Virus record (IMG/VR): IMGVR_UViG_2778261527_000007
Source of the DNA: a virus
Lineage: Duplodnaviria; Heunggongvirae; Uroviricota; Caudoviricetes
Reading direction: 5' to 3' (one strand)
DNA: 12,961 nucleotides
Position numbers and translations under genes: made by a program. Numbering within the stretch: position 1 is the stretch's first letter; the number at the start of each line of letters is the position of its first letter. The notes under the pieces are model-generated. The model did not search any database, was not told where the DNA came from, and saw nothing but the letters and a program-made list of their open reading frames with translations. This document shows positions 1,497 through 10,492 of this stretch, piece after piece.

Positions 1497-1689
1497 AAAG
1501 GTTTTCCTTATGGAGGGTTTTAGACGTGGAGAGAGTCCACAGGGTGATCCGGTGCAACGCCGGATATAAGGACCGCCACAGAGGACAATCCGAATTGTTG
1601 GAAGATGGGAGGCCGTGGGGTGAATAGAAGAGGGCGGCATCCGCGCCGCCCTTTCTAATCTGGCTCTCTCTCACCCTCTAGGGTGGGGG

Positions 1690-1709
1690 GAGGTGTAAAC
1701 CTCTTTTTT
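1690..1709 (+). terminator. Possible intrinsic terminator hairpin (GAGGU-GUAA-ACCUC followed by UUUUUU)
   Basis: 5-bp stem with GNRA-type tetraloop followed by six T. Nothing obviously coding upstream on +, so the role is unclear. Confidence 0.3.
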
Positions 1710-1767
1710 GTGGTCACTCACCCGCCAGCGTCACGGGAGCAACCGCCAGCCGATGGGTAAATAACCA

Positions 1768-1796
1768 CAAAAAAGAACCCGGTAGGAGAGACCGGG
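1768..1796 (-). terminator. Intrinsic terminator upstream of the head gene pair
   Basis: On the - strand: CCCGGU-CUCUCCU-ACCGGG perfect 6-bp GC-rich stem followed by UUCUUUUUUG. Sits ~270 bp upstream of the decoration-like gene start. Confidence 0.45.
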
Positions 1797-2697
1797 AGAA
1801 GACAATGTAACTTACTGTCTGATCACTTGTTTTCCTGTGTAGCCTCAGAGCCTTACATGATTTGCTTTCATGGTTCAGCAAAGAAGCCACAGAGGAAAAC
1901 GGGACGCAACCAACGCCCCGGAAACCATCGACACAAATCAACAGTTTATCGTTGAGACCAGGTAACCAGCCCGGCCCAACTGTGGACCCCTAAAGGGTCA
2001 ATACAATCGAAGGAGATTCCGCTTGTATTCTGAAGAGCCGCAGTTAGCGACGCTTTAAAATAGGGCCTGTGCCGCAAGCCCTATGATTAGAGGCATTTTG
2101 AATCGTAGGAATGTCATCAACTGGCGGAACTTGAGGAGAGGACCGCACACAAAGCATTCTGGCAAGTGGAGTTGAAAGAACGCTTTGGGTGAGGGCCGGG
2201 GACTTGCTGAAGGTTCCCGGCTCTCTTACAGACCCTGACAGGTTGGCTAAAACCCATGTTTCTGTACAGGTGTGAGGCGGCAAGCTGCAAAACGGCGATT
2301 TCGACATACTCACCATATCCCACACCATGTATATTAGTTTAACACGAATGATTATCATTTGCAATAAAAATTAATTGCATTGTGTTGTTTGATATGATAT
2401 GTGAGATTGAGGGCAGATCTGGCGGCAGGTACAGAGGAGCCACACAGAAGAGGGGCGGGAGCATCCCACAGGGGCCACAGGAAAGCCTCCACGGGGTTTT
2501 AATGGGGTAAGATGATAAATGACCTTGTCACAGTGGCGGACGCGCTGGAGAGCTTTACAGGAGGTTGTAGAGGGTGGAGGGATTATTGATTGATAATTGA
2601 ACAGGTGAGAGTGTAATTAATTTTTATTGACAGTCTATAAAGATCATGTTATTTGCGTGTGCATACGCACTCACGCCCGCGCCTCCGCGAACACATC

Positions 2698-2802
2698 TTT
2701 TAAATAAAAGATTTTTATTATAATCGTTCAATCGGACTTTGACAAGTCCTCTTTCACTCTTAAATAAAAGATCTTTTATATAATATCTATCGTTCAATAA
2801 TT
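2698..2802. repeat. AT-rich imperfect direct repeat (two ~40-bp copies, ~60 bp apart)
   Basis: TTAAATAAAAGAT(C)TTTTAT..TAAT..CGTTCAAT occurs at 2698-2735 and 2758-2802. A TTGACA hexamer lies between the copies (2739-2744). Confidence 0.5.
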
Positions 2803-2948
2803 AATCGCTTAGGCTCTTAATTATTTCACTCATATATTATTACCATTAAAACCTTCTCGGCCTGATCGGCCTTACCAGGTTTTAGGCCGTAGGCCTGTTC
2901 CCACAATGTGGAGTCTCGCCTGTGTGGCTCACTCCAGACAGGGACCCC

Positions 2949-3006
2949 GGAAATATTTTCCGGGCAGGGTGGAAGATTTTTCCGGCCTGTTAGGAAATAT
3001 TTTCCG
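2949..3006. repeat. Three phased 14-bp repeats GGAA(A/G)AT(A/T)TTTTCCG at 22-bp spacing
   Basis: Copies at 2949-2962, 2971-2984 and 2993-3006, each a near-palindrome (GGAAA..TTTCC). The 22-bp phasing equals two helical turns, typical of protein-binding arrays (operator, iteron or packaging-site type). Confidence 0.6.
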
Positions 3007-3414
3007 ACAATAAGACTATATATAAAACTACCCATAAGACTAACACCCAGGGGCCAGGTCAAGATCTTTAAGGGAGTGTTGGGGAAATCGTAGATTGATT
3101 GGTAAGAGACTGATCTCTGTTAAGCGTCTTACAGACGCGCCTCTTTGGCAGCGCTCGTACCAGCGAGCAAGACCCCTTTGGAACACCGCACGATGTAAGG
3201 TGACCTCTGGGCGGCGGGGTGGGGTCCCCGGCCCGGCATAACGTACAGAACCACAACCCACAGGAACCCACCTAAACGCGCCGCTGTGGCGCTCTCTCCT
3301 ACGTAGACAAGGAAACACCTTATAAACGCCCTCCGGCGCTCTGAGAGCCTTACAGGGGCTTTCTGTGCCTATAGCACAATAAACAAATGATCGCAAGATA
3401 AATCAATAAAGTTA

Positions 3415-3443
3415 TTGCGAATCATTGTCAAATAGTGTAAAAT
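3415..3443 (+). promoter_or_regulatory. Candidate sigma70 promoter for the + strand operon
   Basis: TTGCGA (3415-3420), 17-bp spacer, TAAAAT (3438-3443), ~75 bp upstream of the first ORF. A second candidate is TTGTGA (3449-3454) / TATATA (3472-3477). Confidence 0.3.
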
Positions 3444-3517
3444 AGATATTGTGACGGGGTAGTTAATCAGGTATATAAATCCCCATCATACTATAACCAA
3501 CCCAGCAGGAGAATGCA

Positions 3518-3943
3518 ATGAGTATTTACCTTGATGTTGAAAAAATGGTTGAACGTGTCGATCAGCGTGATCTGACCCGTAAGACCCTGACAGAAACCCG
3601 CAGCCGGATGAAAGCCGCCGGACGTATGAGAGAAGTAGAAGCGATTACGCAGGCCCTTGAATTGACCAAATCCAGTGCCTCCGGCGTTATGCGCCAGTCT
3701 CAGCGCCTCACAGGTAAAATTACAGAGATGGACGCAGAGAAGGCATTAGAGCTTAAAGCAACCGTTGCGCTGTTCGCTTCCAAGTCTACGGATCTGCAAG
3801 CCTCCATTGTGCTGGCGTTCCAATCCCTCTTTGAGGCTAAAGGCGTGCCGATGGAATATGACGAAGTGATGGCCTACATCATGTTGAATGCGGCGGATCA
3901 GTTTGAGCGTATCACCGGAGAGCTACCCGTAATCGTACATTAA
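3518..3943 (+). CDS. Hypothetical protein (141 aa)
   Basis: First gene of the operon; ATG preceded by AGGAG with a 6-nt spacer. No family recognised. Confidence 0.65.
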   Translation: MSIYLDVEKMVERVDQRDLTRKTLTETRSRMKAAGRMREVEAITQALELTKSSASGVMRQSQRLTGKITEMDAEKALELKATVALFASKSTDLQASIVLAFQSLFEAKGVPMEYDEVMAYIMLNAADQFERITGELPVIVH

Positions 3944-4409: not shown

Positions 4410-5049
4410 GCCATTTACCGCAATCCCGCATGACCTTGCGGACATTGAGCTGATCGGAGGCAAGGCGTTTACCATGAACATGGTTTACACCTACAGCCTG
4501 ATCAAAGGTTACCAGGACAATGGGCAAACGGCCTATTTCTCACAAGATCTTTTAGCCCGTCGCCTGGGGGCCACAGATCGAACCGTCCGCAACCTGTTGC
4601 GCGATATGTTGGAGATGGGTCTGATTAACAAGACCGGGCAGATCGGCGGCAAGACCTGCCATTACACAGTTAACCCGATCACCCCGGAAATGGTGGGAAC
4701 CCCTGAAGCCGCCAAACCTGAAGTAACCAAACCAACCGCAGCACCCCAACCGAAGGAGACCGTAGAGAATGCAGGAAGTAACCAGCCTGGAATTGTTAAG
4801 TGTGGATCTGAAAGTGTACATAGAAGCCGCCCGGCGTCGCCTGGAGCTTCTCCTGTGGACCACAGCGGGGGCGCTATTCGTCCCGCTCCTGTCCCTGTGC
4901 CAGTAGAGCAGGGGGCCGCAAACGATGATTTACGCAACCCTGTTATTAATTTTGTGGCTGGCTCTAATGTGATGATGGTCAACGGCTTGCCTGTTGAATA
5001 TCTGGAGCCAGAAGAAAGCGCCGTTGATCAGTTTGGTGATGCTTTCTAA
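4387..5049 (+). CDS. Winged-HTH (HTH_36-like) DNA-binding protein, possible replication initiator or organiser (220 aa)
   Basis: ATG preceded by AAGGA; overlaps the RHH gene by 23 nt. Motif AYFSQDLLARRLGATDRTVRNLLRDMLEMGLI resembles the HTH of phage/plasmid replication proteins, followed by a Pro/Ala-rich linker and an acidic C-terminal domain. Alternative start at ATG 4474. Confidence 0.6.
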   Translation: MTAAAVSKPFTAIPHDLADIELIGGKAFTMNMVYTYSLIKGYQDNGQTAYFSQDLLARRLGATDRTVRNLLRDMLEMGLINKTGQIGGKTCHYTVNPITPEMVGTPEAAKPEVTKPTAAPQPKETVENAGSNQPGIVKCGSESVHRSRPASPGASPVDHSGGAIRPAPVPVPVEQGAANDDLRNPVINFVAGSNVMMVNGLPVEYLEPEESAVDQFGDAF

Positions 5050-6238: not shown

Positions 6239-8373
6239 TGAGCGGTAACGTGATCATTACCAAAACGATTAACCGGACCATGTTCACCACGGACGGGGCC
6301 AGCTATAAAAAGACAGTTGACCGTATCAAACAGGTAGGGAAAGAGTGGGACAAAGTAGCGTCCAAGATGAAACCGCTACGCCTCAAGTTTGAGGAAAACG
6401 CCTACACCAAGATCCGCCGGAAACAGCAGGACGCCGCCGCAAAAGCAGCACTGGCAGAAGCCAAAGCCAAAGCGGCAGCAGACGCCAAAGCAGCCAAAGC
6501 ACAGATCGCAGCGGAGCGTAAGATCCAGACAATCCGCGCTAAAGCTATCCGCTTCAGCACTTCAGCGGCTAACGCCAACGTGACCCCGGCCCAACGTGCT
6601 GGACACCTCCAGGAGTTTGGACAGCTTACGCGCCAGTATCACGCCGGGTCTATGGCATTGCAGGAATATAACGCCCGTGTGTCAAAACTTCAGCAAACCA
6701 TGCGCCAACAAGGCCGGGTAGGCATGAGGGGAGCCACAATTCCAGTAACCGCCAAAGTTAACAAACTGGACACCTCCATGATCGAGGGTGCAGGGGGGGC
6801 GATCACCATTGCCGCAACTGTGGCGCTGAGCGGCAAGATCATGACCACCGGGCAGGATTTTGAATCCGCGCTTTCTGGTCTGACAGCGATCACCGGTTCC
6901 ACAGATAAGGCCGCTAAAGAGTTTGATTATCTCCGTGATCAATCCAACCGTTTGGGGCTGGACCTCCTGAAGACTTCAAAGGATTACACTCAATTTGCCG
7001 CCGCTGTTGGTGACAAACTCCCTAAAGACCAGATGAGATCCATCTTTGAGGGTGCCAGTGAATGGGGCCTTGTTACTGGTGCAGACGCCGACGCACAAAG
7101 CCGCGCTTTGAAAGCACTTAACCAAATGATGAGTAAGGGAACGGTGATGAGTGAAGAACTCAAAGGCCAGCTTTCCGAAGCTCTCCCGGGCGCTGTGGGT
7201 CTGTTCGTTAAGGCTCTCAACCAGATGAAAGGGACAACCAACCTTACAGAAAAGGATCTGTTTGACCTGATGCAACAAGGGAAGCTGTTCTCTAAGGACA
7301 TCCTCCCGGAAGTGGCGAAACAGATGAAAGCCGCAGCTCGTAACGGCGGCGCTCTGGATAAGGCTATGAAGTCCAACCGGGCAAGTTGGCAGCGCCTGCA
7401 AACCAGTATGCAGAACGCTATGAATATCTTCTTTACTTCTGGCTTTGGTAACTCACTAACCAGCGCTTTCGACGCTATCAGCGCCGCTGTTAACGGCTCT
7501 GGTGGGGCCTTTGAGATGTTCGGGCATATCGCCGGGAAAATCGTTGAGGGTGCCACAGATGCGTTTACAGAGTTGCACGACACTGTGATCCTGACCTTCC
7601 GCATTATTGAGTATTACGCCGCTAAGATGGGGATCACTGGTGAGCAGCTTAAATCCTGGGGAGAAATGGCAGCATACGCCGCCGGGGTGGCTCTGTTCGC
7701 TGGCTCTATCTGGAAGTTGGGCGGGGCCTTTAAATGGTTGTTGACCATGCTCAACCCGCTAACCAAATTGCTGGGGGTCATGAAAGGGATCGCCGCTATT
7801 GGTGGCATTGAATCCGCTACAACTGGCGGATCTGGTGGGGAAGGTAAAGACAAGCCAAACAAACCGGGCCGGGGTCCGAAAGTTGGCAAGGTAGGCGGCG
7901 CGGCGGCTCTCTCTGGCGGTCCTGTTGGCTGGGGCATTGCGATCGGTTCGGTAGGTGGGGATTATGCCTGGGATAAAGTCATGGACGCTAACGACGCCAT
8001 GTATGGACAGGACACCACCGCCGGAGGCAATCTGAAGAAAGATAGCCCGCTGGGTAAACTGTGGGATTTCATCCACAGCCCAGACCTTCCGACTAATCCA
8101 GACTTTGCCAAACCAACAGATAAAACAGGGTGGGTAAGCTCTTACTCCAATCCGGGTTATGTTCCTCCTGCGCCGACGATTACAGCGCCACAGCTTAAAG
8201 TTGATATGGCAGGTAATCCACTGATGACGCCGCCAGCGTGGCTAAACCAGCCGCTTAACGTGAACGTCAATGTGAAAGTGCAGGATGGGCAGGTTAGGGA
8301 TCTGGTCCGCTCTGAAGTTGAGACCAACAACCAGCAGGCTTTCAACATGCTGATGCAGGGCGGGCCGAACTAA
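6238..8373 (+). CDS. Phage tail tape-measure-domain protein (711 aa)
   Basis: N-terminal Ala/Lys-rich coiled coil, then a region (..ADAQSRALKALNQMMSKGTVMSEELKGQLSEALPGAVGLFVKALNQM..) matching the conserved tape-measure domain as I recall it. C-terminal half has hydrophobic Gly-rich segments (..VGGAAALSGGPVGWGIAIGSVGG..) typical of tape-measure proteins. RBS AGGGGA. Confidence 0.75.
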   Translation: MSGNVIITKTINRTMFTTDGASYKKTVDRIKQVGKEWDKVASKMKPLRLKFEENAYTKIRRKQQDAAAKAALAEAKAKAAADAKAAKAQIAAERKIQTIRAKAIRFSTSAANANVTPAQRAGHLQEFGQLTRQYHAGSMALQEYNARVSKLQQTMRQQGRVGMRGATIPVTAKVNKLDTSMIEGAGGAITIAATVALSGKIMTTGQDFESALSGLTAITGSTDKAAKEFDYLRDQSNRLGLDLLKTSKDYTQFAAAVGDKLPKDQMRSIFEGASEWGLVTGADADAQSRALKALNQMMSKGTVMSEELKGQLSEALPGAVGLFVKALNQMKGTTNLTEKDLFDLMQQGKLFSKDILPEVAKQMKAAARNGGALDKAMKSNRASWQRLQTSMQNAMNIFFTSGFGNSLTSAFDAISAAVNGSGGAFEMFGHIAGKIVEGATDAFTELHDTVILTFRIIEYYAAKMGITGEQLKSWGEMAAYAAGVALFAGSIWKLGGAFKWLLTMLNPLTKLLGVMKGIAAIGGIESATTGGSGGEGKDKPNKPGRGPKVGKVGGAAALSGGPVGWGIAIGSVGGDYAWDKVMDANDAMYGQDTTAGGNLKKDSPLGKLWDFIHSPDLPTNPDFAKPTDKTGWVSSYSNPGYVPPAPTITAPQLKVDMAGNPLMTPPAWLNQPLNVNVNVKVQDGQVRDLVRSEVETNNQQAFNMLMQGGPN

Positions 8374-8389
8374 CCGCCCATACAAAAAA

Positions 8390-8419
8390 GGCTCCCCTAG
8401 TGGGAGCCTTTTCTCTTTT
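8390..8419. terminator. Bidirectional intrinsic terminator between the convergent tape-measure and recombinase genes
   Basis: GGCTCCC-CTAGT-GGGAGCC perfect 7-bp stem, flanked by an A-run (8384-8389) and a T-rich tail (8409-8419). Confidence 0.6.
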
Positions 8420-8442
8420 ATAACTCCTAATATCCAGGCTTT

Positions 8443-9009
8443 TCATAACAGATCTTCTATTGAATATTTATTACTGAAATCATCTACTTTGCGTTGTGTG
8501 GCCCCAATGTAATGGAGCGTACTGGATAACGATTTGTGCCCCAATGCCTTACTGATTACGGCTATATCCTCCCCATTGTCATAACCAATCGTTGGTTTAC
8601 TCTTCCTCATGCTGTGGGTCGAAAGATTCAGCCCCAGCTTTTCCCCGGCGTAGCTAATTTCCTCATGCAATTTGGAGCGGCTCACAGGTTTTCCCTTGCT
8701 CCTGTGGCTGTCCAACTGTAAGAGGTATACATGATCAGGGTTCGCCTCTCTCCGGGCCGCTATGATGCGTTTAGCGGTATCGGTGAGCCTCACCCGGACA
8801 GATTCACCCGTTTTCTGTTGGGACAGGACAAGGTGATCGCCTTTGATGTCGTCATAACGGATAGAGCGCAGATCCGACACCCTCAGCATTAATTCATAAC
8901 CCAGCAACCAGGCGTCACGGTACAGCGTCAGCCCCTTGCCCTGTTTGAGTAGCTCAACCGCTACCGCTTTCACTTCCTGAACTGATTTACAGCCCTCTAC
9001 GAAATTCAT
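8443..9009 (-). CDS. Tyrosine recombinase, integrase catalytic domain only (188 aa; FimB/FimE-sized)
   Basis: Strong RBS GGAGGG 5 nt before the ATG. All catalytic signature residues of lambda-Int-type recombinases are present in order: R (LRVSDL), K (QQKTG), H-x-x-R (HSMRKS), H and Y (LGHKSLSSTLHY). There is no room for N-terminal arm- or core-binding domains. Confidence 0.75.
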   Translation of the reverse strand: MNFVEGCKSVQEVKAVAVELLKQGKGLTLYRDAWLLGYELMLRVSDLRSIRYDDIKGDHLVLSQQKTGESVRVRLTDTAKRIIAARREANPDHVYLLQLDSHRSKGKPVSRSKLHEEISYAGEKLGLNLSTHSMRKSKPTIGYDNGEDIAVISKALGHKSLSSTLHYIGATQRKVDDFSNKYSIEDLL

Positions 9010-9033
9010 TCTGTACCCTCCAGATCCTAACTG

Positions 9034-9050
9034 TGATCAATTCTTGATCA
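9034..9050. promoter_or_regulatory. 17-bp palindrome TGATCAA-TTC-TTGATCA with two GATC sites, in the recombinase promoter region
   Basis: Perfect 7-bp inverted arms with a 3-bp spacer, 25-41 bp upstream of the recombinase start codon. Confidence 0.35.
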
Positions 9051-9403
9051 AAAACATGCACTTGTAAACGACAAAAATGATTAATTTTATGATGTGTCTT
9101 TTTAGTGAATTAAATCGGGTTTAATCGCGTTTAATGGTAAAGTAATGACCCGGCAGGGGAGGTAATGACCTGTTTAAGTGGGTAAAAGATGGTTACTTAA
9201 TGTACTATCACCACAAGGCGGGTAAGGTGATTTGACTCCCCCAGCGCCTTAAAGTTACTGTATTTGTGGGCAATTAATTATTGTTTCGTTATGGTGTTGC
9301 CTGGCAAATTTTCAATTTACCCTCAAGAAAAAATCCCCAGCTTTTTTATCCTTATATGAGAATCAATATCATTTGTAAACGATAGTCGTTCTCGTTACCA
9401 ATC

Positions 9404-9582
9404 GGGGCGAAAGCCTTCGCCCCTCAAAGGGCCTCTGTAGGCCCGCTCTCTGTATGCGCCTGTGGCGCTACCACTCTTAACCCTGTGGGTTTGTATTACT
9501 TGTCACAAGATAATGCGCCACAGGCGCACAGGGGAGGCGTCCGCCTCCAGGGTGGCCCGGCTGGGCCACTGGTCCACAGGGT
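9404..9582. repeat. Cluster of GC-rich hairpins and nested inverted repeats
   Basis: Successive perfect stems: GGGGCGAA/TTCGCCCC (9404-9423), GGGCCT/AGGCCC (9429-9444), GCGCC-TGT-GGCGC (9456-9468) and its reverse complement GCGCC-ACA-GGCGC (9515-9527), GGAGGC/GCCTCC (9533-9548), GTGGCCC/GGGCCAC (9552-9569). A 9-bp inverted pair ACCCTGTGG (9480-9488) / CCACAGGGT (9574-9582) encloses part of it. Does not match the REP consensus I remember. Confidence 0.5.
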
Positions 9583-9972
9583 AAAACAACAGAATGGTAT
9601 TGTGTTGTTATTAAGTAATTGAGAATAAAGGGATATCTGAGTGAGCGCACTGTAAGAGCGGAAGGTTGGACAATGTTTGACCAGAATGCAGGCCATCCGG
9701 TAGGGAGCGCCCCCAGATATTTGGCGAAAATACTCTCATCACCCGGGGCCTCAGATCGAGGGGCCTAGCAACAATATCCAAACTCCCGGATATTTTCCCA
9801 CCCAACTGGAAGGAATCCGCCCCTATTTTCTGTTCGTGTATAGGTTAGGCTGAGGGAGGCTTGCCAATGTACACCCCCTGGATTTGGTGATCTGTTAAGT
9901 TATTGATTTTGATCGATTTTAGATCAATCATCCGTTGCCGGGATTACCCCCCACCCAGACGGATGGCACACA

Positions 9973-10155
9973 ATGAATAACGATAAAGCAAACCACCCTA
10001 AACACTTCCAATACTTGGGCCGCATGGTCACTGTTTACCCTACATACATCATTATTGACGGTATCAAGATCAGCCGTGCCCGTCTTTCCTTTGCATTCCA
10101 ATTGGAATTGGCAAAAGCACTTCGACTGCATGAAGAAAGCGTATGCAGAAAATAA
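9973..10155 (+). CDS. Hypothetical small protein (60 aa), uncertain
   Basis: ORF followed 37 nt later by a strong intrinsic terminator; RBS is weak (GGATGG). Confidence 0.3.
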   Translation: MNNDKANHPKHFQYLGRMVTVYPTYIIIDGIKISRARLSFAFQLELAKALRLHEESVCRK

Positions 10156-10191: not shown

Positions 10192-10217
10192 AAGCCGCCT
10201 TATGGGCGGTTTTTTTT
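10192..10217 (+). terminator. Intrinsic terminator
   Basis: GC-rich stem (GCCGCC / GGCGG) with 5-nt loop, followed by eight T (10210-10217). Confidence 0.6.
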
Positions 10218-10366
10218 GTGCCTGCCATTTATCTGTGGGTCACAACGTGAGACACAAACTGGGACACAGAGGATTTTTTAGGGTTGAGTCTTTGGCTTCC
10301 CGCTGGCATGATCCAGAACAGGGATTAACGGGACGTTAATCGCAAGCTTTTGATTTTGTTTTATTT

Positions 10367-10492
10367 GACTCGGGGTGCCCTTCTTAAATGAAGGCTGAGA
10401 AATACCCGTATTACCTGATCTGGATAATGCCAGCGTAGGGAAGTCACGGACCACCAGGTCATTGCTTCTTCACGTTATGGCAGGAGCAAACT
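10367..10492 (+). promoter_or_regulatory. TPP (THI-box) riboswitch in the thiM leader
   Basis: Aptamer (about 10367-10445) GACUCGGGGUGCCCUUC..GGCUGAGAAAUACCCGUAUUACCUGAUCUGGAUAAUGCCAGCGUAGGGAAGUC is near-identical to the E. coli thiM TPP aptamer as recalled, including the CUGAGA and ACCUGAUCUGGAUAAUGCCAGCGUAGGGAA elements. Expression platform runs to the thiM SD and ATG. Confidence 0.9.

Follow-up and report, generated by a model that had tools for sequence, protein, structure and literature searches.

Short GC-rich extragenic palindromes that stand in rows and in both orientations are found in the repetitive extragenic palindromes (REP) and bacterial interspersed mosaic elements (BIME). Hundreds of copies are present in Escherichia coli, where the unit is an imperfect palindrome of about 35 nt with a GTAG head and the copies belong to transcription units, where they lie at the 3′ ends of genes or in the space between two convergent genes. 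Their secondary structure as such, rather than the loop sequence, appears to matter, and REP hairpins are generic barriers to RNA decay and transcription. Palindromes also lie upstream of recombinase genes. In Tn4430, with the recombinase TnpI and its internal recombination site (IRS), and in the Xer systems cer and psi, a palindromic core with a very short asymmetric spacer is accompanied on its gene side by extra one-sided DNA of about 100-180 bp. Here we describe a locus that resembles both groups. It lies in a 12,961-nt stretch of a Caudoviricetes record, IMGVR_UViG_2778261527_000007 of IMG/VR (the whole stretch is called the window below), and is composed of seven perfect GC-rich stem-loops within about 170 bp (9404-9569), in the control region of a small tyrosine recombinase gene and next to a 25-bp palindrome. 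This array belongs to no catalogued repeat or RNA family. Its form, a cluster of GC-rich palindromes, is familiar; its setting, as a single copy beside the target site of a minimal tyrosine recombinase, is unfamiliar. The array stems are under purifying selection and the loops are neutral, and our preferred reading, which we hold tentatively, is that of generic structural hairpins acting in a transcript of the + strand.

The stem-loops, from left to right, are H1 (9404-9423, GGGGCGAA-AGCC-TTCGCCCC, a perfect 8-bp stem that includes GGCGAAAGCC), H2 (9429-9444, GGGCCT-CTGT-AGGCCC, 6 bp), H3 (9456-9468, GCGCC-TGT-GGCGC, 5 bp), H4 (9479-9491, AACCC-TGT-GGGTT, 5 bp), H5 (9514-9528, TGCGCC-ACA-GGCGCA, 6 bp), H6 (9533-9548, GGAGGC-GTCC-GCCTCC, 6 bp) and H7 (9552-9569, GTGGCCC-GGCT-GGGCCAC, 7 bp). 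The original prediction had claimed six or more perfect GC-rich hairpins between 9404 and 9582, and this is borne out. Under a rule that asks for a stem of at least 5 bp, at least four G or C per arm and a loop of 3-8 nt, six hairpins pass in this interval, the seventh being a 5-bp hairpin. Dinucleotide-preserving shuffles (2000) held 0.80 +/- 0.93 hairpins and reached six only once, while the rest of the window has 0.35 rule-passing hairpins per 179 nt. The fold z-score of the array is -5.65 as RNA of the + strand, -5.83 as RNA of the - strand and -8.06 as DNA, with 0 of 200 shuffles equally stable in each of the three folds. The nested inverted repeats of the prediction are present as well: a perfect 14-nt repeat (9455-9468 / 9515-9528, 46 nt between the arms) encloses H4. 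It exists because H3 and H5, which form its left and right arms, are one and the same hairpin, GCGCC-TGT/ACA-GGCGC, in opposite orientations.

A 9-bp inverted pair (9480-9488 / 9574-9582) had been proposed to bound the array. The pair is found at this place and extends to 12 nt at 92%, but it is not conserved. In relatives the right arm reads CCACAAGG, CCACACTG, CCACAGGT or CCACAGGA, and the left arm has no matching, compensating change. The pair looks less like a boundary than like a side effect of the 7-mer CCTGTGG/CCACAGG being present four times. As a separate observation, this 7-mer occurs 12 times in the whole window against 1.8 expected (e.g. at 2466, 2475, 3258, 4852, 5820, 9459, 9482, 9518 and 9574), with all copies on the - strand left of about 3300 and all on the + strand between 4852 and 9482, and a 10-mer, CTGTGGCGCT, has four copies in the window (3284, 6818, 8184, 9460). 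A small palindrome inside the array, CTTGTCACAAG (9499-9509), is not conserved. A coding function of the array was considered and rejected, as no conserved open reading frame (ORF) runs through it and the H6 loop of Kosakonia is longer by an inserted nucleotide.

A nucleotide search for copy number and an Rfam scan had been proposed as checks of the prediction, and both were made. When the 231-nt array region was searched for in 5,426 complete E. coli genomes, 27 of them had it, each at a single site; a more sensitive search with the whole intergenic region gave the same picture of its distribution, and megablast and blastn agree. No copy was found on plasmids, and 50,697 phage records and 72,556 plasmids returned nothing beyond 37-nt noise; a cos, pac, oriT or ssi site, sought by phage and plasmid similarity, was set aside, the matches being no better than this noise. 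At the Rfam gathering threshold the sole match in the window is the thiamine pyrophosphate (TPP) riboswitch RF00059 (10361-10458, 75 bits), and at E<=10 the array gives just microRNA-model noise of 17 bits. No tRNA or tmRNA was found in the window, and no ends like those of integron attC sites (RYYYAAC and GTTRRRY) were noticed by eye, no formal attC model having been applied.

There is next to no chance, then, that the array is a dispersed repeat of the REP/BIME, enterobacterial repetitive intergenic consensus (ERIC) or miniature inverted-repeat transposable element (MITE) type. The original prediction had suggested either a REP/BIME-type element or a small palindromic insertion, while remarking that the E. 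coli REP consensus is not matched; the remark was right and the two suggestions were not. The array does have GC-rich extragenic palindromes in both orientations (H3 and H5), and GTAGGCC in H2 agrees with the head of E. coli REP. Nonetheless, the GTAG head resemblance is limited to this 7-mer and GTAG is lost in one relative (L102), and the units measure 13-20 nt and differ from one another, against about 35 nt for REP. Unlike REP/BIME, moreover, the array is specific to one kind of island, stands in a single place per genome and lies between divergent genes, the recombinase gene (-) and a 60-aa ORF (+). Copy number and context rule out ERIC. Neither a MITE nor a small palindromic insertion suits an element without terminal inverted repeats or a flanking target duplication at 9404 and 9582, whose context is constant and which is always linked to the same recombinase gene; the Serratia remnants L096 and L097 provide no clean empty site, everything rightward being different. 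No catalogued REP/BIME family is matched.

Near-identical arrays are carried by E. coli-type islands of four genera and by IMG/VR and metagenome contigs. The distance from the array to the recombinase start is always 447-457 nt, and the 60-aa ORF follows 487-517 nt after the array in every copy except that of Kosakonia, where the ORF was not found. In Serratia islands (L010, L095, L098) the similarity is patchy, yet the corresponding position holds a GC-rich hairpin cluster (z=-3.64) in which the H2 stem recurs with another loop, GAAG. A GC-rich array is kept within an AT-rich region in two clades. In the Serratia remnants L096 and L097 homology is lost exactly at the left edge of the array. 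At the other edge, just right of 9583, alleles switch. A search for further Serratia-type copies gave one chance match (L211). Among 80 genome loci of the recombinase family, the only features of the hairpin-density profile are the terminator that follows the gene and a small increase between -300 and -200, with no hairpin enrichment upstream of the recombinase, so that the array is specific to one clade and is no general companion of the family.

Site classes were compared in the same 12 variants, which share one history, for the recombinase gene and for the array region. Variable sites amount to 7.1% in the stems against 28.7% at third codon positions of the recombinase (Fisher p=3e-5), which is a fourfold difference, and the stem value is about that of non-synonymous positions (4.8% at first and second codon positions). 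Loops vary at 36% of their sites, the linkers between hairpins at 17.5% and the 134 nt left of the array at 43%. Absence of any conservation had been named as an outcome that would refute the prediction; on the contrary, the stems are conserved across the 12 variants. The loops behave otherwise. The H1 loop is exactly flipped to GGCT in four relatives (L099, L100, L109, L110) and is ATTC in Cronobacter; the H6 loop is exactly flipped to GGAC in most relatives and is GGGAC in Kosakonia; the H7 loop appears as TGCT, GGCG or GGTT. An exact flip is equal to the reverse complement of the whole hairpin (AGCC to GGCT in H1, GTCC to GGAC in H6, and vice versa). Since loops are replaced or flipped without effect on the stems, it seems to be the structure as such that is kept, and not loop recognition or pairing with a target.

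Changes within stems are few. H3 is invariant across all variants, and H4 has one singleton G to T change. H2 is deleted in Cronobacter and has C9432T in five fetched copies, while H5 has C9518T in two variants; both changes give G.U on the + strand. These two C to T changes are the only stem changes seen in more than one sequence, and on the - strand they would leave A.C. Four changes break a pair, all of them singleton G to T. Single changes that give G.U affect three hairpin or internal-stem pairs (49-58, 82-135 and 119-123). The asymmetric tolerance of G.U hints, weakly but consistently, that what matters may be the + strand as a single strand.

Perhaps the array has no selected function at all, being a palindrome-rich spacer that intrastrand template switching makes and keeps perfect and that hitch-hikes with the recombinase module. 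Exact flips of loops, like the same hairpin in two orientations, are what template switching at inverted repeats leaves behind; Serratia appears, by eye, to have only the 3′ half of H1, as though the 5′ arm were a copy made in the E. coli type; H2 can be lost, two relatives have no significant structure at this position, and no compensatory changes are found. Even so we consider this unlikely, as the stems vary four times less than synonymous-type sites with the loops at the neutral rate, and correction by template switching should have fixed some mutations in both arms, which is not seen. The persistence of a GC-rich array in an AT-rich region in two clades does not favour it either. If the hairpins were dispensable after all, the locus would still show, in a clean natural setting, how perfect inverted repeats undergo loop-flip mutation.

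Our preferred reading, that of structural hairpins in a + strand transcript, gives the array a structural function, specific to its lineage, within the control region of a module made of the small tyrosine recombinase and its palindromic site. Selection would keep the pairing of seven short GC-rich stems and leave the loop sequences free. RNA started from a promoter 25-135 nt leftward would fold into successive, very stable hairpins immediately ahead of the recombinase core site and the rightward promoter that may be embedded there. Like REP/BIME hairpins on RNA, the row would serve as a physical barrier or stabiliser: polymerase would be paused or stopped, and the recombination site and promoter would not be transcribed across, or, alternatively, exonucleolytic decay would be blocked. 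The array would not be a sequence-specific riboregulator. Generic structure is favoured over antisense RNA, boxB-like protein-specific hairpins and kissing complexes because the pairing matters and the loops do not. We infer the transcription of the region, the relevant strand and the role of the hairpins alike.

The + strand is preferred because of the asymmetric G.U tolerance and because promoter-like sequences point rightward in both clades. In the window these are TTGACT-18-TACTGT (9232-9261, + strand; TATTGT in other variants), which points into the array, and a weaker one, TTTATC-16-TATCAT (9345-9372, + strand). In Serratia, TTGYCC-16-GATAAT lies 10 nt upstream of the hairpin cluster. 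The scan used our own approximate weight matrices; the match at 9232-9261 is present in most E. coli-type variants and is a possible promoter, a stricter tool scan not having reported it.

Several observations weigh against the preferred reading. The rightward promoter-like matches are weak and not consistent across all variants; a terminator scan found no U-run of terminator quality after any hairpin, and E. coli RNA polymerase terminates poorly at GC-rich hairpins that lack a U-tract. The fold is as stable on one strand as on the other, and the consensus stems are pure Watson-Crick, free of G.U, which is more like DNA palindromes than like a typical RNA. H2 is lost in Cronobacter, and no significant structure is present at the array position in L011 (z -0.92) and in the metagenome contig L117 (z -0.66). 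There is no upstream gene on either strand whose mRNA the hairpins could protect. No compensatory double change occurs in 57 predicted pairs over the 12 sequences, which are too similar to expect any, and no Rfam match was obtained even at E<=10. Of the structured RNA that the prediction had also mentioned, selection on the stems can be affirmed, and an Rfam match, covariation or an established promoter or terminator cannot.

By itself the array is modest; it marks the control region of islands that carry a minimal recombinase and a co-evolving target palindrome. If the hairpins regulate the recombinase or an adjacent switch, seven stems that can be broken and restored would offer a tractable handle on the control of satellite-like elements, be it of their resolution, their excision or their expression.

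A bolder version makes the array a nucleic-acid cofactor, structured RNA or extruded DNA, that gates or directs the adjacent recombinase at the neighbouring palindrome. In concept this would resemble the non-coding RNAs encoded beside IS110-family recombinases, and it would tie resolution or rearrangement of the island to transcription of the control region. We give it a very small chance.

The recombinase (188 aa; 8443-9009, - strand) consists of a catalytic domain only (Pfam PF00589, E=3e-17). In an alignment of 14 homologues the residues R, K, HxxR, H and Y are all present. NCBIfam gives weak matches only, to Xer proteins (archaeal XerA included) and to tyrosine DNA invertases. Close homologues of 77-99% identity are found in Cronobacter, Pectobacterium, Kosakonia and Serratia. 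The palindrome, AACAACAGAAT-GGT-ATTGTGTTGTT (9585-9609, 25 bp), has an 11-3-11 geometry and starts 15 nt right of H7. It falls within one of the only two intergenic blocks that can be aligned between E. coli and Serratia (9035-9136 and 9585-9622). We also examined 61 distant relatives of about 36-45% identity, among them recombinases of Pseudomonas, Idiomarina, Shewanella and Methylococcales. An 11-3-11 palindrome precedes the start codon in 38 of the 61 and begins 112-129 nt before it, a range in which chance would place about 0.002 per locus, and the arms are lineage-specific (e.g. ATTAACAGAAT..ATTGTGTAAAT, GTTCCCAAATT..CTTTTGGGAAC, AGTAACACAAG..CTTGTGTTACT). Because the relatives have a similar palindrome at a fixed distance of about 115 nt, with arms that co-vary, 9585-9609 is probably the cognate core site of the recombinase. 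It may also carry the extended -10 (TGgTATTGT) of a rightward promoter. The prediction had thought of a recombination site too; a very likely recombinase target does exist, yet it is this palindrome, outside the predicted interval, and not the 9-bp pair. In the core of Tn4430 TnpI, IR1 and IR2 are perfectly symmetric around a spacer of 4 bp, and the stagger is 6 bp (PMC2847244), which shows that a tyrosine recombinase can accommodate an arrangement of this kind.

Only one full copy of the palindrome is present per locus. No copy of an arm with up to one mismatch lies inside the array; arm copies elsewhere are found 109 nt upstream of the gene in Serratia (L010) and at window 2379-2389. The latter, in a gene-free gap of about 2 kb, is an exact 11-nt copy of the right arm ATTGTGTTGTT, and a downstream sequence similar by eye to that after 9609 (TGAGAtT..GGG..ATCTG) suggests a paralogous regulatory site. 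Catalytic-domain-only tyrosine recombinases of about 180 aa form a family that is widespread in Gammaproteobacteria, with at least 265 members in GTDB species genomes and at least 532 in IMG/VR. Recombinase and palindrome, about 115 nt upstream, occur together (loci L015-L091) in genomic islands near RadC, large serine recombinases and defence-like cargo, and they look like a self-contained module of such islands. In strain 11PC (L004 5566-6010) a 649-bp deletion (window about 8881-9529) runs from inside the recombinase gene to H5, so that the gene has lost its 5′ part and its promoter and little of the array is left; with only CAC microhomology at the junction, it looks illegitimate and not site-specific.

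In the enterobacterial islands with capsid and tape-measure genes, the palindrome lies about 600 nt from the gene, and the roughly 475 bp in between hold the hairpin array, short direct repeats and promoter-like sequences. The main rival explanation starts from this arrangement. The array would be accessory or architectural DNA of a resolution site whose crossover core is the 25-bp palindrome. The synapse would owe its shape to the 475 bp, with their array, short repeats and half-sites, and the palindromes might extrude or bind host proteins. We regard this as possible but doubtful. The array ends 15 nt from the probable core, on the gene-proximal side, and its length of about 180 bp is that of the cer/psi accessory regions; the accessory sequences of cer and psi and the DR1-DR2 motifs of the Tn4430 IRS would be its counterparts. 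All stems are perfect Watson-Crick palindromes, the fold z-score as DNA is -8.06, and homology or identity breaks at both edges of the array (on the left in L096 and L097, on the right where alleles switch beyond 9583). A core with symmetric arms and a 4-bp spacer is known for a tyrosine recombinase from TnpI (PMC2847244).

Sister islands of E. coli lend this explanation further support. Islands at rluB (strains A17 and H15; L092 8224-9380 and L093) share window 9760-10138 at 88-91%, a block of 380 bp with the 60-aa ORF included, and are otherwise unrelated to the island studied here. In place of the tyrosine module they have a 189-aa serine recombinase and a res-like cluster of GATACC/GGTATC repeats. 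This swap at an equivalent position suggests that the tyrosine module is a resolution-type system too.

On the other hand, 38 of the 61 distant relatives have the palindrome about 115 nt from the gene, which leaves no room for an array, and the 80 loci are without hairpin enrichment upstream of the gene. The known accessory regions are duplex DNA bound by proteins, not hairpins; stems of 5-8 bp with loops of 3-4 nt are short for cruciform extrusion. The array has no repeated recombinase-arm motif, and the stem polymorphisms shared between sequences are tolerated on one strand only. Unlike in the TnpI and Xer systems, moreover, the recombinase here lacks an N-terminal core-binding domain, and most of its relatives lack the array. 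Structural hairpins in a + strand transcript stay our preferred reading.

Inverted repeats beside a small tyrosine recombinase also recall fimS, where FimB and FimE, of about 190-200 aa, are found next to a non-coding segment with short inverted repeats and promoter-like sequences. The array could accordingly be part of an invertible promoter switch, bounded either by the 9-bp pair or by a 30-nt inverted pair (9034-9063 / 9897-9926). The 188-aa recombinase is near FimB/FimE in size and has the weak NCBIfam invertase matches, inverted repeats exist, and the whole module is oppositely oriented in Serratia with respect to E. coli and Cronobacter. Still, all 26 full-length E. coli copies and about 20 others, from four genera and metagenomes, have the same order and orientation; hence neither an inverted version of the segment nor any orientation polymorphism is seen among some 45 copies examined. 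There is no second recombination site, a single full palindrome being present per locus, the 9-bp pair is not conserved, and the 30-nt pair is just 70% complementary and overlaps the promoter-like sites of both flanking genes. A fimS-like switch is thus highly improbable.

The 30-nt pair deserves a description of its own. It contains double GATC palindromes (TGATCA-N5-TGATCA and TTGATC-N7-GATCAA), overlaps the promoter-like sequences of both flanking genes, those of the recombinase and the 60-aa ORF, and could be a shared operator or a Dam-sensitive site. As to the module, the control region and the recombinase, together with a small secreted-protein ORF, have opposite orientations relative to the tape-measure gene in Serratia-type islands (L010 9050-10788, L011, L095, L117) and in the window (8373-9972), the latter as in E. 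coli and Cronobacter. A site-specific inversion would account for the difference if inverted repeats flanked the unit, but none were found.

A strand asymmetry of tolerated changes would also fit a signal that works in single-stranded DNA, such as a primase site of the G4 type (ssi) or a hairpin promoter used, for example, after mobilisation or during replication. The G4-type origin, plasmid ssi sites and the f1 intergenic region resemble the array in being compact, stable GC-rich hairpins in non-coding DNA, and GC-rich hairpin arrays are known from the G4 complementary-strand origin and the f1 intergenic region. DnaG prefers the trinucleotide CTG, and CTG spans the stem-loop junction of H2, H3 and H4. 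Hairpin I of phage G4 has an 8-bp stem and a mini-hairpin, CGGCGAAAGCCG (PMC13037366); H1 likewise has an 8-bp stem, with the core of this mini-hairpin, GGCGAAAGCC. However, such signals are strand-specific and belong to obligatory single-stranded stages, whereas H1 flips strand between variants. The flip in L099, L100, L109 and L110 puts GCGAAAGC on the other strand, and Cronobacter has GCGAAATTC. The island, which has head and tail genes and a lambda-O-like initiator, encodes neither a relaxase nor a rolling-circle Rep and gives no other hint of a single-stranded stage; no similarity to plasmids or phages was found. We judge this signal rather improbable.

Hairpin-rich untranslated control regions are common to several phage-related elements, namely the P4 CI RNA, P1/P7 c4, lambda nut and HK022 put. 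It may be asked whether the array is a nut-like antitermination region that loads an N-like protein, of a helper phage or of the island, on RNA polymerase. Two hairpins are preceded by boxA-like sequences (CGCTCTCTGTAT before H3, CACTCTTAA before H4), and CACTCTTA, one position off lambda boxA CGCTCTTA, has a hairpin next to it. Among the genes of the island are an O-like initiator and lambda-like head genes of the E and D families, and the Serratia equivalent of H2, GGGCCU-GAAG-AGGCCC, resembles the lambda boxB GCCCU-GAAGA-AGGGC. But boxB needs its loop sequence, and the array loops are neutral and flip. They are tri- or tetraloops and not GNRA-like pentaloops, the better boxA match is without the G at position 2, and no arginine-rich N-like protein is evident among the small ORFs of the island. 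In more general terms, the RNAs of P4, P1/P7, nut and put depend on conserved loops or single-stranded segments, while in the array the loops are the least conserved part, and the array shows no Rfam similarity up to E<=10. A nut-like role is very unlikely.

The array lies within a 963-bp non-coding stretch that extends from the recombinase gene to the 60-aa ORF (9973-10155, + strand; hypothetical protein WP_001058091.1), which is followed by an intrinsic terminator at 10192-10212. Next to the recombinase start, a promoter-like site of the gene (9034-9068, - strand, TTTACA-17-AAGAAT) overlaps the palindrome TGATCA-N5-TGATCA; with the adjoining sequence (9035-9136) it is conserved between E. 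coli and Serratia. Short direct repeats follow at 9110-9170, TTAAATCGGG, TTTAATCGCG and TTTAATGG at 10-nt spacing and then GTAATGACC twice. They occur in Serratia too and, besides the array, are the least variable intergenic part; they are possible protein-binding iterons.

The window is E. coli chromosome, and comparison with K-12 reveals an island of about 14.9 kb between rcnR and thiM, inserted in the thiM leader and flanked by a direct repeat of about 71 bp of the rcnR-thiM spacer, which makes up its right end (10367-10437). This repeat (about 7447-7517 in L002) overlaps the 5′ part of the aptamer of the thiM TPP riboswitch (10361-10458), and the island therefore carries a replacement copy of the riboswitch start. 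Its genes include an integrase (outside the window), a lambda-E-type major capsid protein, a 711-aa tape-measure-like protein, a lambda-O-like initiator, other helix-turn-helix proteins and a protein that resembles the lambda D decoration protein weakly, at a score below threshold. Where the flanking DNA sufficed, related islands were seen to share a core of capsid gene, gene-free gap of about 2 kb, O-like gene, tape-measure gene and recombinase, with different integrases and insertion sites. A literature search for a satellite with tape-measure, capsid and decoration genes gave nothing matching this island, and integrative, satellite-like islands of about 13-15 kb apparently constitute an undescribed family.

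The gap itself (window 1640-3518, about 2 kb without called genes, from the decoration-like gene to a 141-aa gene) is present in every examined island of the family. Two blocks in it, 2335-2370 and 3131-3226, are 87-89% identical between E. coli and Serratia, whose neighbouring genes no longer align as DNA. The second block, which matches nothing in Rfam or among phages, is inverted in L010 and not in L011. A cos site was considered for 3131-3226, which contains GGGCGGCG, and was dropped as no phage match was found. The lambda-O-like gene contains two copies of GAAGTAACCA, at 4720 and at 4775, as well as the overlapping GTAACCAGCC, which lies on the opposite strand at 4778. These are candidate origin iterons, as in lambda, and an origin is more likely to lie inside the O-like gene.

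Finally, at least 80% of the window is found in one place in only 2 of the 5,426 genomes, and in several genomes the island is decaying (L001 7901-12810, L002 8256-9424), with insertions of IS1203, IS4 and IS911 together with deletions.

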